The position numbers and the translations under genes are program-made. From contig OX597816.1 of NCBI GenBank assembly GCA_951406725.2, positions 73,842,001 through 73,906,000 on the forward strand: 64,000 nt of DNA, in the 5' to 3' direction. Shown one piece after another: positions 764 to 61,412 of the stretch. Position 1 is the stretch's first letter, and every line of letters begins with the position of its first letter. The notes under the pieces are model-generated. The model was not told the DNA's origin. It searched no databases and saw nothing but the letters and a program-made list of their open reading frames with translations. The DNA comes from Octopus vulgaris. Lineage: Eukaryota.

Positions 764-1371
764 ACCTTATAATGAGGCTGTAAGATTTGAAATTATTTAA
801 TGTGTGCTGGTTTACCAACAGGGGAGTAGTGGGAGGCTGATTAATTTTTAATGAGGTTCAATAATTGATGATCTTAGATGATTAATTAACTAATTCTTTT
901 GTAATGATGATAATGACCAAAGTTGAAGTGTGGTCAGCAATAAGTACAACTTCCATGGATGGACACAGGAATGGTCAAATGGGTAAGGAGTTTGGTTCCC
1001 ATCCATAATGTCTTGGGTTTGGTCTCAGAACATGGCAGTGTCTTATGGAAAGGGGTCTATTACCATGGGTCAGGGTTGACCTCAAATATAGGGAGTGAAG
1101 TTTGATAGATGGGAGCTACATAGAAACCCATCTTGGACAGATACCCATAGAATGACTCTCACAGATGGCTCCCACAGAATGATTCCCACAGAATAATTCC
1201 CACAAAACAACTGCCAACAAATTGAATAGTTTCTACAAAACAACTCCCACACTGAATGTCCCCTAAACAATATACACACCCTCACCAATATGGCACCTCT
1301 ACAGCCTAATCCCAGCTCCTTCCCCCCACCCAACTTCCTACCCACAAAGAAAGAAGAATGTAATCACTTAC

Positions 1372-1459
1372 TTCCCCCTGGCAGCATTAATCCAGCCGAC
1401 AGCAGCAAGTTTCCGCTCATCGATCGTGAGTGCCATACCTTCTCCAGTCGTTCCATTCA
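1372..1459 (-). CDS. NPL: N-acetylneuraminate lyase exon (VNGTTGEGMALTIDERKLAAVGWINAARGK)
   Basis: TAG acceptor and GTAAGT donor, 88 nt. Contains the GTTGE signature of the NAL/DHDPS family. The gene continues beyond the left edge of the window. Confidence 0.92.
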
Positions 1460-2480
1460 CTACAACATTTAGAAAAAAAGATGGGGTGAGAAAGAGCTGC
1501 AAATTTAAACATCTACAGTATTGATGAGTTAAATGAAGGACCCTCTATGATAACTAGAAATGACAGTCTATTCAGCTTCAAATGGCACTGCATCATCTTA
1601 AAAAATTAAGGACACTTTGAACACTAAAGTCTTACATATACAAGAAGATGTGATGGTCGTGGCTGGAATACTTTTGATCAGAGATCCACTTTGTCAAGAG
1701 TAACTTAGTGTTAACAATTACTGAATTGATGACAAATTATCTTCATCGATGGCATATAAGAATTAAATGAATAGAATAAAATATAAATTTATTATCATCA
1801 TCACTACCATGATCATCATCGTTGTTGTTGCTGCCATCATCATCATTTAGCATCCTTGTTCCACACTGGCATGGATTGGTCAGTTTGATAATCTCCAACA
1901 TGGTGGAGGAATGCATCAAACTTCAATGTCTGCTTTGCCATGGTTTCTATGGCTGGAAACCCTTCCCAGCACCAACCACCTGACAGGGTGGACTGGGTGC
2001 TTTTATTGTGACACCAGCATTAGTGAGGTCACCATGTAACACGAAAGAAAAGGAAAGGAAAGAGAGTAGAGAGGGGTGTGACTTTATACCAGGTGTTGAG
2101 AGGCAAAATTCTGTTAGAGGAACAGGAACAGGTGTCTTGTTGTAGAAGAGATACAGTGCTACCTTGAATAATGGAAATTGATAAAGTAAAAATTAAAATA
2201 ATTAAATTAATATAAACACTTGAAGTAGTCATTGGTTAAATTTCTGCTGTGTATATAGCATTTATGATGTCTACAAATGTGGAATGGCCCAGGCTGAAAT
2301 ATTTTATCTCAGAGAAATTTCTCAAAGAGAACAGTATGTTAGAAGGGCTTTGCTCAGAATGCTGTCAGATGGCCAACATGGTGTTTTGAGATGATTCTCT
2401 CTCCTCGGTTGATAGTGGCAGGCAGATACAAAGACATACATATACACACATAGATATGTATATACACTTTATTTGTGCAT

Positions 2481-2653
2481 TGACAAGGCAACCAATGGTT
2501 TCATGTGAAGTGATTTTTACAATTGTTCAAGTGTGCCACATGGAAGTGTTGGTATTTGACTCTGTCCAAAAATGGAGTACCAACATTTTCCATGTGGCAC
2601 ATTTGAACAATTGCAAAGATTTCTTCACATGAAACCATTAGTTGCCTTGTTAA
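2481..2653. repeat. Fold-back (~75-bp arms) carrying the 3' half of an HHR-like motif
   Basis: tgacaaggcaaccaatggtttcatgtgaag... pairs with ...cttcacatgaaaccattagttgccttgtta. GAAA-CCATTGG-TT is present; the 5' core is absent. Confidence 0.75.
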
Positions 2654-2727
2654 ACCCCAAATAAAGAATATTTATCCACCAATGTAGTGCTGAGCATGCA
2701 TTCTCACTGTTTGATATTAGTGCACAT

Positions 2728-2797
<70 letters not shown>

Positions 2798-3129
2798 GTG
2801 TATGATGGGATTCCATACAGCTTCTATCTACCAAATTCCCTCACAAGGTAATGGTCACCCTGGGGTTATAGTAGAAAACCGGGAATACAAAATCATACAA
2901 ATTGAGATGTTTAACCACGCAGCCACACCATCTTGGCCTCTTCGAATAGACTCATGATCAAAGATATTCATGACAGTTTATATTTTGAGGTGGAGCAGGG
3001 GATAATTTATCTAGGAGTACATTAACTATCATGTCTTTTTATAAAATAATAGCATGTTTTCAAAAGGAGATTTGGCTGTTATTTCTTGTAGGTCAAGTGA
3101 TTAGGTAAAGGGTGCCTCATTAGCTGGAG

Positions 3130-4027
3130 TAATTGGCTGGTCATTTGTTTTACATGTGGAGACATGACAAGGGACTTGCAGAAATTTCCTTGTGGACTGA
3201 TCTGCTAAGAGTGAAAGCTAATAGACCCCAGCCATCACCACCACCAAAGAGCATCAGAGCCCTAAAGGAAGGTGACAAAGCTCCCAAGGTGAATGCAATA
3301 TCAGGGCACCCATTTTCTATTTCACATTCAGCCTCAGACTGGGAGATGCAAATGGACCTGAAGGGCAGACTTGTTTTCTCAGAGGAGATGCTATGTTCCT
3401 ATACAAACAACCATTGTGGTCAAACTCCCACAGTGCCCTAGTAGGACATACTTGATATTTCCCACCTGGAAAAGAAAGCCAAATATCAGGGCTTAGACAA
3501 TGAGGCTCTTGGCAAGGGATGGCATGCAGCCTCATTCTCCATCAACGTCATCTGTTGTGGATTTCATGCTAGATCAATGCATTATTTCCTGCAGAAGATA
3601 GGTCTGGAAGCCCCTACGTCTTCATCCAGAGGTCTCGGCAGTAGCTGCTTGATCTGCATGCTTCCTATCTAGCTGCTCTTTATGAGCAGCATTCCCATGC
3701 TCATCGGCAACAACAGGATGCTTATGGCGTATGTGCTGCGAACGACCTGCAGCCATCAATAAAGCCATCAAGGAAACAGACATGGCAGCTGAAACTAGTT
3801 CAAGGTGGCTGTGATTGATAGGAGACCACAAGTGGAACCTTTGCACAGGTGAAAACTAATTTAGTCTGCACTGCCTGACTCAGGTAAAAATGTACAGGTA
3901 AGAGGTGAAGTTGTTGTGACCCTGAGATACCTGTTGATGATACGGAAGGGTTTCCAGCATTGTAAAGAACATACAAGACCTCTGAATAACCCCTACAGAT
4001 TCTGCAAGGAGGCAAACCATCTCTGAT
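3130..4027 (+). mobile_element. Decayed, rearranged Hero/NeSL-like (RLE) non-LTR retrotransposon 3' region
   Basis: Motifs WRHDKGL, DWEMQMDLKGRLVF, an inverted PDIWL segment, and AINKAIKETDMAAETSSRWL. Confidence 0.55.
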
Positions 4028-10816: not shown

Positions 10817-10851
<35 letters not shown>

Positions 10852-11052
10852 GCAATAATAATTCTCTAAATGAGATATAGACAGTGACTGCTCCATAACA
10901 TAAGGGACATTAGCCAACTGAATATGGCTAGGGACAGGGCAGGGTGGTGGGGGTGTCACTGTTGCATTTAGCACCAGGCGAACATCAACGTCACCAGATA
11001 GGCCGACGCCATCACGGCGTCCTCTATCTTGCAAAGGGAGATCATTCCCCAA

Positions 11053-11125
11053 GAAGCGGATGCCACATACGGACCTAGGTTTCAAGGTGTATTGCCTATT
11101 ATCAACGTATGGTAGGCACCGCTTC
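11053..11125 (-). ncRNA. Type I hammerhead ribozyme (U3:A8 variant), copy 1
   Basis: CAUACG-UUGAUAA-uAGG caauaca CCUu-GAAA-CCUAGG-UC/CGUAUG. Helix I is extended by UGCC/GGCA and GAAGCGG/CCGCUUC. Confidence 0.85.
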
Positions 11126-11407
11126 TCGACGAACAACTCACCGTGCAAGATATATATAAAGATTTTCAAGTAAATACATTTACTGATTTCGAAAATCTGT
11201 TCGACAGCAATAATAATTCTCTAAATGAGATATAGACAGTGACTGCTCCATAACATAAGGGACATTAGCCAACTGAATATGGCTAGGGACAGGGCAGGGT
11301 GGTGGGGGTGTCACTGTTGCATTTAGCCCCAGGCGAACATCAACGTCACCAGATAGGCCGACGCCATCACGGCGTCCTCTATCTTGCAAAGGGAGATCAT
11401 TCCCCAA

Positions 11408-11480
11408 GAAGCGGATGCCACATACGGACCTAGGTTTCAAGGTGTATTGCCTATTATCAACGTATGGTAGGCACCGCTTC
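11408..11480 (-). ncRNA. Type I hammerhead ribozyme, copy 2
   Basis: Identical to copy 1, offset by 355 bp. Confidence 0.85.
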
Positions 11481-12014
11481 TCGACGAACAACTCACCGTG
11501 CAAGATATATATAAAAATTTTCAAGTAAATACATTTACAGATTTCGAAAATCTGTTCGACAGCAATAATAATTCTCTAAATGAGATATAGACAGTGACTG
11601 CTCCATAACATAAGGGACATTAGCCAACTGAATATGGCTAGGGACAGGGCAGGGTGATGGGGGTATCACTGTTGCATTTAGCCCCAGGCAAACATCAACG
11701 TCACCAGATAGGCCGACGCCATCACGGCGTCCTCTATCTTGCAAAGGGAGATCATTGATAGAGGACGCCGTGATGGCGTCGGCCTATCTGGTGACGTTGA
11801 TGTTCGCCTGGGGCTAAATGCAACAGTGACACCCCCACCACCCTGCCCTGTCCCTAGCCATATTCAGTTGGCTAATGTCCCTTATGTTATGGAGCAGTCA
11901 CTGTCTATATCTCATTTAGAGAATTATTATTGCTGTCGAACAGATTTTCGAAATCAGTAAATGTATTTACTTGAAAATCTTTATATATATCTTGCACGGT
12001 GAGTTGTTCGTCGA

Positions 12015-12087
12015 GAAGCGGTGCCTACCATACGTTGATAATAGGCAATACACCTTGAAACCTAGGTCCGTATGTGGCATCCGCTTC
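12015..12087 (+). ncRNA. Type I hammerhead ribozyme, copy 3 (predicted cleavage after C12068)
   Basis: Helix I 12029-34/12069-74, core TTGATAA 12035-41, GAAA 12057-60, palindromic ACCTAGGT helix III, GUC triplet. Confidence 0.85.
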
Positions 12088-12242
12088 TTGGGGAATGATC
12101 TCCCTTTGCAAGATAGAGGACGCCGTGATTTGCGTCGGCCTATCTGGTGACGTTGATGTTCGCCTGGGGCTAAATGCAACAGTGACACCCCCACCACCCT
12201 GCCCTGTCCCTAGCCATATTCAGTTGGCTAATGTCCCTTATG

Positions 12243-12281
<39 letters not shown>

Positions 12282-23940: not shown

Positions 23941-24334
23941 TCTTTATATATAAAAGTGAGGTTGTGTGTCTGTCTCCTACGATTTAGATTCCTAACTACT
24001 CCCACATTTTGCGGTGCAGTTTAACCAAAACCGGGTATCTTATACTCGTGATTCATATCGAGACCGTCTGGGTATTAGCGCGCGTCTACGATGAGTCTAC
24101 GATTTAAAAAAAAATTTACCATCAATTTTTCCCATTTTTAATCCATTTTTGACATATATAAGGGAAGTAACTCTCTAAAATTTATTATTAAATCTCAGAA
24201 CGTAAAAAGCTACAGTAACACCCCTCCCCCTTTGTGGTTAGCCATATTGAGATGGCTATTATACTTTACATCTCTAAAAATGCTTATATAATTATTTCCC
24301 TTACAAACCCGAGCAACGCCGGGCGATACTGCTA

Positions 24335-42453: not shown

Positions 42454-43869
42454 TACATCCACGATACCAACCATGCTCTCCGGCTTTTCAACTCTTTCTC
42501 CTTTCCTCCCGGCTCCTCCAAAATCCTTTTTACTATGGACATCCAAAGCCTCTATACTGTTATCCCTCACCACGAAGGACTGCAGGCCCTTCGACACTTT
42601 CTTGACCTCCGCTCTAACCCTGTACCTGACACCTCCACACTCATTCGTCTGGCCGAACTTGTCCTTACTCTGAACTGCTTCTCGTTCGCGGGCGAGTTCT
42701 ACCATCAGGTCTCGGGAGTGGCCATGGGAACGCGAATGGGCCCCAACTATGCGAACCTGTTCGTTGGCTATGTTGAGGCCCAAATATTCTCTAATTTCAC
42801 TGGTCCCACTCCTGAACTATATGGTCGTTACATTGACGACATTATCGGTGCCACCTCACTCTCCCGCGAACATCTAGATTCCTTCCTCTCTTTCGTCCAA
42901 TCTTTCCATCCAGCCCTCCACTTCACTTCCACTATCTCCAACACCTCTGTCTCCTTCCTCGACATTTCGGTTAGCATTCTTCACTCCACTCTTACCACCT
43001 CCATTCACTACAAACACACAGACTCACACTCATACCTCAACTTCTCTTCCTCCCGCCCAGAACACACCAAGCTTTCCATCCCCTATTCCCAATTCCTCCG
43101 TCTACGTAGGCTCTGTAGTGACGACCATAACTTTGAGACTCAGTTTCAACGTATGGCTCACCACTTCACCCTACGTGGATACCCCCTCACCACTATCCAC
43201 ACCGCCCTTGCCAGAACACGGTCCGTGGACCGTGTATCTGCTCTCTCTCCCCGAACCCGCCCTGTAGTCTCCCGCCTCCCTTTTCCCCTCACTTACCACC
43301 CCACGACCCTACGTCTCCAACGCACCATTCTTCGAGCTTTCCGTCAGCTCCAGTCCGACCCGTCCACTTCACACCTCTTCCCTAACCGACCCCTCCCCTC
43401 TTTCAAACGAGCCCACAACCTTCGAGACCTTTTGGTCCATAGCTCCTTCCCTGACCCTACCTCCCAACCCGGCTCGTTCCCCTGCTCCCGCCCACGTTGC
43501 CGCACTTGCCCTTACCTCTCCAACACCACCCGCCTCACTAGCACCCACCATCGACCCTATCCCATCATCCACTCCTTCACCTGCACCTCCAGCCATATTA
43601 TCTATTGCATCTCTTGCTCTCTCTGCAATTCCTTGTACATCGGACAAATGGGACGCCGCTTGGCTGACCGGTTCGCGGAACACCTTCGTGACATCCACTT
43701 TGCGAACGACACACCGGTCTCACGCCATTTCCGCTCCACCGGTCACTCCTTGCAACACCTATCTGTGTTCGGTTTGTCCTTACACAGAGGCCATCCAGAT
43801 TCCCGTTTGCGCCGTGAACAGGAATTAATCTTCTCTCTTCGCTCTTATACGCCATTTGGTCTCAACTCT
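42454..43869 (+). CDS. Penelope-like reverse transcriptase + Cys-linker + GIY-YIG endonuclease (N-terminally truncated)
   Basis: MDIQSLYTVIPH, QVSGVAMGTRMGPNYANLFV, RYIDD, FLD, YKHTD, CSRPRCRTC, IIYCISCSLCNSLYIGQ..RFAEH, PFGLN. The ORF ends outside these coordinates are SINE and low-complexity read-through. Confidence 0.93.
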
Positions 43870-44477
43870 CCTCCCTCCTCATCTAACCCCCCTCTCCCCC
43901 CTCCTCACCTATCCTTTCCCCCCCGACCCCTACTTCTTCAGTCCTTCATCCTTTCACCCCTACTCCCCTTCCCTTCTTCCCTCTTTCTCCCTCCCTCCTT
44001 CCCTCTTCCCCTTCCCTCTGCTCCCTCACTCCCTCTCTCCCCTTCTCTCTCCCCCTCTCCCTCTTTCCTCCTTCCTCCCCCTCATCCCCTTCCTTCTCCC
44101 CCTCCCCATCCTCTCCTCCTCCTCCTCCCCTTCTCTTTCCCCCCTCTTCTTCCCCTCCCCTTCTCTCCCCCTCTTCTCCCCCTCCCCCTCTTCTCCTCAC
44201 TACACCACACGACGTTACACATCACATCATATATGATGTGCCATACTAATACATACACCAATTAATACATACTAATACGTACTAATACATACTAATACAT
44301 ACTAATACATACACCAACCCTATACATACACACGTCCAGACCCCGCATACGCACTTATACTCTCTCATACACACACACACACACTTATACATACTAATAC
44401 GTACTAATACATACTAATACATACACCAACCCCATACATACGCACGTCCAGACCAATCCTACGCACTAATACTCTCT

Positions 44478-44512
<35 letters not shown>

Positions 44513-44746
44513 ATACATACTAATACATACACCAACCCTATACATTCACACGTCCAGACCCCTCCTACGCACTATTAGCTGGTCCTTCAACCCTTTTATC
44601 AACCCTATTATCTCCCCTTATTTCGCTCTCGCGTCTCATGTTTGATCTTTGACCTCTGGCCGAAATCAGATCGCCATGTTGATTCGTTAGCTACTGCACG
44701 CATTTTTTTCTCTCCTTCTTTCTGTGTTTTTTTGTCTCTCTGTGTA

Positions 44747-44784
44747 TCTTTCTGTTGAAGAGCGTAGGCTCGAAACGTTAAAGA
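44747..44784 (+). ncRNA. HHR-like motif of the Neptune terminal repeat (atypical CUGUUGA core)
   Basis: UCUUU-CUGUUGA-a-GAGC guag GCUC-GAAA-CG-UU/AAAGA. Confidence 0.65.
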
Positions 44785-44881
44785 CTTGTTTTATTTATAT
44801 TTCCTGAGCGCCATACTAATACAATTGTTCGTTTGTTTTCCACCTGCCTTCGTCTTTTGTCTATTTTCATAAAGCTTCCCG

Positions 44882-44916
<35 letters not shown>

Positions 44917-61037: not shown

Positions 61038-61041
<4 letters not shown>

Positions 61042-61408
61042 GGCAAATATACGTCACGATGTGTTGCCGCTACTGTTTATAACTCGCTCTGAGATTTATC
61101 ATTGTTTGATTTCACTTTTTCAATATCAGTGTCAATCGATACTGGAAAAAGTATATGTATTTGTGAGGGGAACTGACTTCTCATCGACAACTATGATTGT
61201 CACACGCCAATGATAGGTCAATACCTTGAAACTCGAGTCCGTGTGTATCGTAAGTTGAAGACGGGAAGGATGACTTCCCTTCACAAATACTGATAGGGCA
61301 CAGAAAGTGTGTCTATAGCCAGCTGGAGGAGGTGTCTTCCTGGGGCTACAAACTACAGTAGCATCCACCCTTAGGGGTTGGCCATATTCAAATGGCAAAT
61401 ATACGTCA

Positions 61409-61412
<4 letters not shown>
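61038..61412 (+). mobile_element. Retrozyme-like 352-bp monomer with 23-bp terminal direct repeat, inside (TA)n
   Basis: aaatggcaaatatacgtcacgat at 61038-61060 and 61390-61412; central HHR; collinear with the 355-bp unit. Confidence 0.85.
61201..61245 (+). ncRNA. Type I HHR with mutated core (CCAAUGA)
   Basis: CACACG-CCAAUGA-uAGG ucaaua CCUu-GAAA-CUCGAG-UC/CGUGUG. Confidence 0.8.

Follow-up and report, generated by a model that had tools for sequence, protein, structure and literature searches.

The window analysed here, a 64,000-nt stretch of the Octopus vulgaris genome (assembly GCA_951406725.2, contig OX597816.1, positions 73,842,001 to 73,906,000), holds at 10851-12246 an insert built of tandem units in two opposed arms, which are joined blunt at 11756/11757 (gap 0) and whose 3′ ends both point outward into (TA)n. 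Each unit carries a small hairpin (H2), from whose last nucleotide downstream positions are counted. The earlier sequence-only reading had placed this hairpin near the right end of the insert and again in a second insert near 61 kb, and both positions were borne out (Table 1). It had also described the plus arm as matching to 18 nt past the hairpin and the 61 kb copy to 16 nt. These extents hold: the plus arm follows the unit to +18 (12246), with the last 3 nt (TAT) common to (TA)n and hence a break at +15 to +18, and the 61 kb copy follows it to +16, with 2 shared nt and a break at +14 to +16. The left junction (10851) lies at +62 from its own minus-strand hairpin, 44 nt past +18. In the circular fold of the family A unit, H2 forms four pairs with a pair probability of 0.98-1.0, and a long-range stem (P0) surrounds both H2 and the proximal (P) site.

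Table 1. Features of the two retrozyme inserts in the window.
Feature	Position in window	Strand
Minus (D) arm of the head-to-head insert, 2.55 units of 355 bp	10851..11756	-
Distal (D) 3′ junction, +61/+62 after hairpin 10913-10928	10851..10852	-
'Tail' (+19 to +62): P0 3′ strand, CUC-N5-GAG hairpin, AU-rich D site	10851..10894	-
Hairpin H2, last minus-arm unit	10913..10928	-
Further hammerhead cut-site words	11072-11083, 11427-11438	-
Further H2 copies	11268-11283, 11623-11638 (-); 11857-11872 (+)	
Plus (P) arm of the head-to-head insert, ~1.4 units	11757..12246	+
Long-range stem P0, 5′ strand (ACAGUGAC)	11823..11830	+
Long-range stem P0, 3′ strand (GUCACUGU), within tail	11897..11904	+
Type I hammerhead-like motif, U3-A8 core (UUGAUAA), palindromic helix III ACCUAGGU, predicted cut after 12068	12029..12074	+
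Hairpin H2 (GCCATATTCAGTTGGC), GCCA/UGGC stem, 8-nt loop, family A, last plus-arm unit	12213..12228	+
Proximal (P) 3′ junction, +15 to +18, into (TA)n	12243..12246	+
Family B insert, 352-bp unit + ~23 nt, single arm, P end, in (TA)n	61038..61412	+
Hammerhead-like motif of the 61 kb family B copy, helix III ACUCGAGU	61201..61245	+
Hairpin H2 of family B (GCCATATTCAAATGGC), 5 bp, loop AUUCAA	61381..61396	+

The 61 kb insert belongs to a second family (B), comprises ~1.06 units and starts at its 5′ side within the hairpin loop. Its hammerhead core reads CCAAUGA, compared with CCGAUGA in other family B copies (G5 changed), and the motif in this copy is likely inactive. A short, old relative lies at 24185-24271, with the hairpin GCCATATTGAGATGGC at 24241-24256 and a P-type end, preceded by an inverted 18-nt D-type piece; since a near-identical copy with the same flanks occurs at another locus (L311), this relative has moved inside another repeat. 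The window also includes, at ~43300-44885, the 3′ part of a very young autonomous element (PLE-2) with an RT + GIY-YIG frame and CT-rich and tandem spacers. This copy carries a minimal hammerhead-like motif at ~44753-44785 and a single 3′ end into (TA)n, and the family has many copies that are 98-99% identical, with frames of up to 1214 aa.

Retrozyme units of this kind are 350-362 bp long (355 bp in family A, 352 in B and 360 in C), have a GC content of 42-47% and stand in tandem, in arrays of up to 13 hairpins. Each contains a type I hammerhead-like motif with a palindromic helix III and a predicted cut 155-159 nt upstream of the hairpin end. Helix I, the core words and the palindromic helix III are all present and covary among families, while the G10.1-C11.1 pair is absent; a scan against Rfam gave microsatellite-driven matches only and no hammerhead match. 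Both the U3-A8 variant and the palindromic helix III have been described before, according to the available text of PMC4209133. No RT or GIY-YIG reading frame was found in the unit, such elements sitting elsewhere in the genome, and only two ATG frames of at least 40 aa overlap the insert, both extending into the flanking (TA)n. In four sets of presumed-RNA contigs the unit was covered piecewise, with no start, end or circle junction, and these sets were given no weight in the argument. The element shares with animal non-LTR retrozymes, as the available texts describe them (Cervera and de la Pena 2020, PMC7229834; Li, Clavereau and Pollet 2026, 10.64898/2026.07.22.740005), units of 150-450 bp in tandem, low GC (below 50%) and long target duplications (12-15 bp here, against a criterion of >4 bp), carries a motif like their type I hammerhead, and differs from the published ones in its variant hammerhead (U3-A8 or CCGA core, no G10.1-C11.1). 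It works like an animal non-LTR retrozyme, and by most tested features is one, with self-cleavage and circles as predicted properties.

In the 2.8-Gb genome (227 contigs), the hairpin word GCCATATTCANNTGGC has 2112 + 2118 exact matches (4230), compared with 1 + 1 for its reversed control, an excess showing that its abundance is not due to chance; the tail motif has 4550 matches and its control none. The mapped set comprises 136 inserts, assigned to families A, B and C and drawn from whole-unit searches (40 candidates scored out of 1542 and out of 2672) and from the first 100 positions of two pattern searches; 6 spurious hairpin matches of 311 were dropped, and likely duplicated loci were kept in the counts (L366/L374, L440/L441, L046/L047, L078/L080). 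Their 212 outer ends concentrate at two sites, with 110 at P (+5 to +20), 94 at the distal (D) site (+54 to +66) and 8 elsewhere; the histogram of 3′ junctions relative to the hairpin, proposed as a check by the sequence-only reading, is therefore non-uniform, with 204 of 212 ends in two windows and none at the hammerhead-cut position (+190 to +205), and neither distribution that would have spoken against that reading is seen. Among the 95 inserts taken in genome order, 76 ends are P, 65 D and 5 other, of 146. Once shared letters are allowed for, P falls at +15 in families A and C and at +13/14 in B, where P-class values of +6/+7 reflect alignments stopping at a subfamily SNP, and D falls at +58 to +63. 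The two sites are 45-46 nt apart, the intervening tail measuring ~59 nt in family I. The third junction (10851), which had been set aside as an exception about 45 nt further downstream, is thus correctly placed but is no outlier, D being used about as often as P. The 2-3 nt of microhomology reported earlier is present at both junctions then cited and does not generalise, as the main classes share 0-3 nt and 11 of 22 family B P junctions with clean TA flanks share none.

The target itself is AT-rich, with TATATA within 14 nt at 180 of the 212 ends and at least 11 of 14 positions A+T at 195. Target duplications of 12-15 bp were found at five of seven non-TA sites with two ends, which argues for a staggered cut leaving both 3′ ends usable.

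The two end types are distributed over the arms by a near-strict rule. Head-to-head inverted arms occur in 76 of the 136 A/B/C inserts, besides hidden partners, and of these 70 pair one P with one D end, none is P/P or D/D and six have an unclassifiable end (probability about 2e-21); P lies on the left in 35 of the 70 and D in the other 35. The same pairing was seen in family D (seven P/D and one P/P of eight inserts), family H (5/9), family I (11/14) and families E/F/G (13/14), the remainder being unclassifiable or, in one case, an artefact; for families D, H and I the queries bias the end type of the first arm, so that only the partner's type is informative. Altogether, 106 of 107 classifiable retrozyme inserts are P/D, one is P/P and none is D/D. 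The sole true P/P insert (L245, 1150-1770) belongs to the old family D, and an apparent second pair at L311 was dropped because it consists of two unrelated inserts ~2.9 kb apart. Among 60 seemingly one-ended inserts, hidden inverted partners were recognised in seven classifiable cases, with the hairpin damaged or missing, and in four more as arms of 9-14 nt. Every one of these 7 + 4 had the opposite end type and none the same, while the short-arm search found no partner for 17 D-ended and 30 P-ended inserts. The rule extends to an abundant autonomous element (PLE-1), whose 781-aa frame has RVT_1 and GIY-YIG matches and whose two end sites lie 37-39 nt apart: all 10 head-to-head PLE-1 inserts have one P and one D end, and the 25 lone ends are without exception P, a tail-to-tail pair (L467) having been left out of the count.

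The arms also carry information on their template. In 31 of the 70 P/D inserts the arms are nested in neither direction, and the P arm extends further 5′ than the D arm in 41, which excludes simple fold-back copying. These figures likewise weigh against an explanation in which D is the single true RT start and the P end is made later on DNA, by endonuclease resolution or by copying of the first cDNA. Such an origin would equally yield exactly one tail per insert, and the available text of Craig et al. 2021 (PMC8557442) attributes the PLE tail to EN-mediated resolution; a P arm that often reaches further 5′ is not a copy of its partner, though, all lone PLE-1 ends are P rather than D, and in vitro the PAc enzyme initiates at both sites (PMC11167929, available text), so we regard this alternative as improbable. 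Arm lengths are uncorrelated (rho 0.17, p 0.16), and in 40 of 70 inserts the arms meet at the centre either flush or with an overlap of at most 8 nt.

Both arms tend to be of one sequence type. No insert of 76 mixes families, where ~9 would be expected among the 22 genome-order B and C inserts if arms were drawn independently, and the subfamily agrees between arms in 34 of 35 family A inserts (31% expected) and 25 of 26 family B inserts (67% expected). The median difference between units of the same insert is 0% in family C (73 pairs), compared with 3.0% between inserts; for family A the figures are 1.2% and 3.3%. A single source locus supplying most of the RNA, or conversion between the arms, could also account for this concordance. 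Of 192 inner 5′ ends, just one coincides with the hammerhead cut, which excludes a cut linear monomer as the template and leaves a circle or an uncut multimer. In the A/B/C families the inner 5′ ends are ~3 times denser 20-140 nt after the cut than beyond it, perhaps because synthesis stalls in the long stem of the fold, or because run-off and trimming occur on some linear templates. A number of one-armed inserts only slightly longer than one unit start at or just after the hairpin (window 61038-61412, L035, L041, L056, L103, L118 and L055); these come mostly from whole-unit searches, which favour such copies, and a stop at a putatively protein-bound domain is a possible reading of them.

Across units of families A, B, C and I, which are 50-59% identical between groups, H2 is the most invariant 16-column window (12/16, against 11/16 for the hammerhead). 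P lies at +9 to +18 from H2 in every family, including family I, where the tail is remodelled and D has shifted by ~12 nt to +71 to +75 while P stays, although the P-site sequence differs and P0 and the tail hairpin are displaced by 4 nt. The loop varies with the P site unchanged (AUUCAR, AUUUAG, AUUGAG, ACUUGG and AUUAGU), so the fixed UAUUCA loop of the sequence-only reading does not stand. Its literal version, in which that loop is the single priming signal and the third junction an outlier, agrees with the constant distance of P from the hairpin but is at odds with 94 ends at D against 110 at P and with loops that differ among families keeping P, and we consider it very improbable.

In a set of 18 diverse copies, none of the four GCCA/UGGC pairs has changed on both sides; the closing pair of H2 has done so in five copies and is unpaired in seven. 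Stem P0 (CAGURRC/GYYACUG) has two pairs with two-sided changes and a pair probability of 0.85-1.0 in the A and B unit folds, against 0.02 in C, where it is absent from the circular MFE; its family I counterpart reads, by eye, CAGC/GCUG. The 3′ strand of P0 lies in the tail, which accounts for the conservation of a segment that is missing from P-ended arms. Fold z-scores of the domain were weak (-0.67 and -1.27), and in a comparison of inherited with private variants, inherited changes affected 0 of 360 stem cells and ~0.7% of cells elsewhere, numbers too small to discriminate. Two further candidates were set aside: an outer stem (CUGGG/YUYAG) proposed by alifold had no two-sided change and a probability of 0 in all three single-unit folds, and a third hairpin with P in its loop was not conserved in register.

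The conservation of H2 and its constant spacing from P fit a positioning signal for internal initiation, and we think it somewhat probable that the hairpin serves as a contact or positioning element. Of the proposal that it is the RT priming signal, the standing as best-conserved window and the fixed distance to P remain; what has to be given up is a sole signal with a fixed loop, given two starts, a variable loop and the place of H2 as one helix of a larger covarying domain. Moreover, the hairpin-to-tail spacing is constant in families A-H, and a role of H2 as a ruler is therefore inseparable from its neighbours.

Because PLE-1 follows the one-P-one-D rule without this hairpin, the main rival holds that twin priming is right but that H2 is a bystander for the RT, kept for circle stability, as a host-protein or promoter element, or for hammerhead folding, with the tail elements and local AU-rich motifs setting the starts. 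The PLE-1 tail does loosely resemble that of the retrozyme (UAUA..CUC-N5/6-GAG..UAUUAU by eye, with no profile match), and in family I D shifts to another UAUUAUU motif. The persistence of P at +9 to +18 from H2 in all families, even in family I with its altered P-site sequence, speaks for an involvement of the hairpin, and we rate the bystander role as unlikely.

A matching signal in a helper was also sought. A check of autonomous PLE ends for the same loop, as the sequence-only reading had proposed, was negative: the hairpin had no matches in 50 loci holding GIY-YIG/RT genes and only three in 50 loci of the second PLE family, all belonging to a neighbouring retrozyme. Neither the domain profile nor the hairpin was found in the ends of PLE-1, PLE-2 or fragments of other families, and no homology of the element to a PLE terminal repeat was found, among 150 scored of 6136 GIY-YIG candidates and in 30 + 20 loci; in PLE loci the profile matched only retrozyme copies. 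One PLE fragment beside a retrozyme (L286), considered as a helper link, proved to be a separate insert. PLE-2 has a single 3′ end in all copies shown. We read PLE-1 as Neptune-like from its cysteine linker; at one locus (L209), a 479-aa frame (268-1707) lies upstream of and overlaps the 781-aa frame (1626-3971).

Taken as a whole, we favour as a probable explanation that the folded H2 region is the docking site of a PLE RT-endonuclease and that both ends of the cut target prime cDNA; the twin priming at P and D is the firmer part of this explanation and appears highly probable. The unit would be transcribed as a multimer and probably circularised by a dimer-type hammerhead. A PLE protein dimer would then bind the domain formed by P0, H1, H2 and the tail, with H2 setting the proximal start 13-15 nt downstream. 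The endonuclease would cut AT-rich DNA, mostly (TA)n, with a stagger of 12-13 nt, as the 12-15-bp duplications suggest, leaving two 3′-OH ends. Priming would then take place at P from one of these ends and at D from the other, matching the pattern visible in the inserts; the chemistry would involve 0-3 nt of pairing and, most simply, the same RNA. Both RTs would run toward the RNA 5′ side, past the hammerhead site and round the circle, and stop at unrelated points, after which the two cDNAs would be joined head-to-head. Inserts with a single arm, such as the 61 kb copy, would arise when the other arm is lost or stays very short. More tentatively, and with less than even confidence, a single circular RNA might be primed at once by both DNA ends through an asymmetrically docked PLE dimer, the PLE 'tail' might be a general record of twin priming, and P0, H2 and the tail might form a portable 110-nt PLE-recruiting module unlike the helper's terminal repeat.

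The nearest known system is PAc, a Poseidon PLE of Anolis (Frangieh et al. 2024, PMC11167929). In its available text, the RT is described as starting in vitro at two internal sites that delimit an optional tail, both strands are cut and extended, starts show no strand preference, ~55 nt of RNA downstream of the main start are required, and a dimer is predicted. The retrozyme resembles PAc in having two internal starts around an optional tail, an AT-rich target, no need for homology and a hammerhead cut that is not a start, and the model proposed here matches the need of PAc for RNA downstream of the main start. It differs in its non-coding 355-nt tandem template, in a tail of 45-46 nt (~59 in family I) rather than 30-40, and in an AU-rich start rather than the AC-rich stem loop of PAc. 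As internal initiation on linear RNA was demonstrated for PAc (available text), a template with no free 3′ end, as the sequence-only reading had supposed, does not require a circle. The rule of one P and one D end per insert, found here, is not stated in that part of the PAc text.

Inverted pLTRs with a tail, often at one end only, have been described in PLEs (Craig et al. 2021, PMC8557442; Arkhipova et al. 2013, PMC3846280), and the available texts explain them by EN resolution or by an antisense template on which self-priming occurs; our counts favour two primed sense templates over both. The available texts on animal retrozymes (PMC7229834; 10.64898/2026.07.22.740005) suggest PLEs as helpers, leave the mechanism open and give no priming site or cis element. 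The class of element, the PLE tail and internal initiation are thus already known. The literature search found neither the one-P-one-D rule, its tie to two primers, nor a retrozyme priming element, figures, preprint supplements and most subscription papers lying outside its range. A related principle operates in L1 twin priming, in which both target ends prime cDNA to give an inverted insert, the second primer annealing at variable upstream sites and the arms not overlapping. Both ends prime in each system, whereas in the retrozyme both starts are fixed and the arms overlap.

The origin of PLE inverted repeats with a one-sided tail and the priming of animal retrozyme RNAs are left open in the available texts of PMC8557442, PMC11167929 and 10.64898/2026.07.22.740005. 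A near-strict one-P-one-D rule in retrozymes and in an autonomous PLE offers one mechanism for both features and supports, directly and at the level of insertions, the mobilisation of retrozymes by PLE enzymes. With its two mapped starts and natural fold variants, the 355-nt template makes the model testable in the existing in vitro assay, and a small RNA module directing internal priming of attached sequence would be of interest for RNA-templated insertion tools.

Two loci illustrate the range of array structures. At L100 (G000:C1:31009321-31013646), one insert carries 10 + 3 hairpins, and its 11 full units differ by at most one base across both arms. At L279 (~1130-1980, minus strand), an array of 119-bp units consists of the hairpin-plus-tail domain and (TA)n, without the hammerhead, and is probably a DNA-level tandem duplication of a short D-ended arm together with its target.
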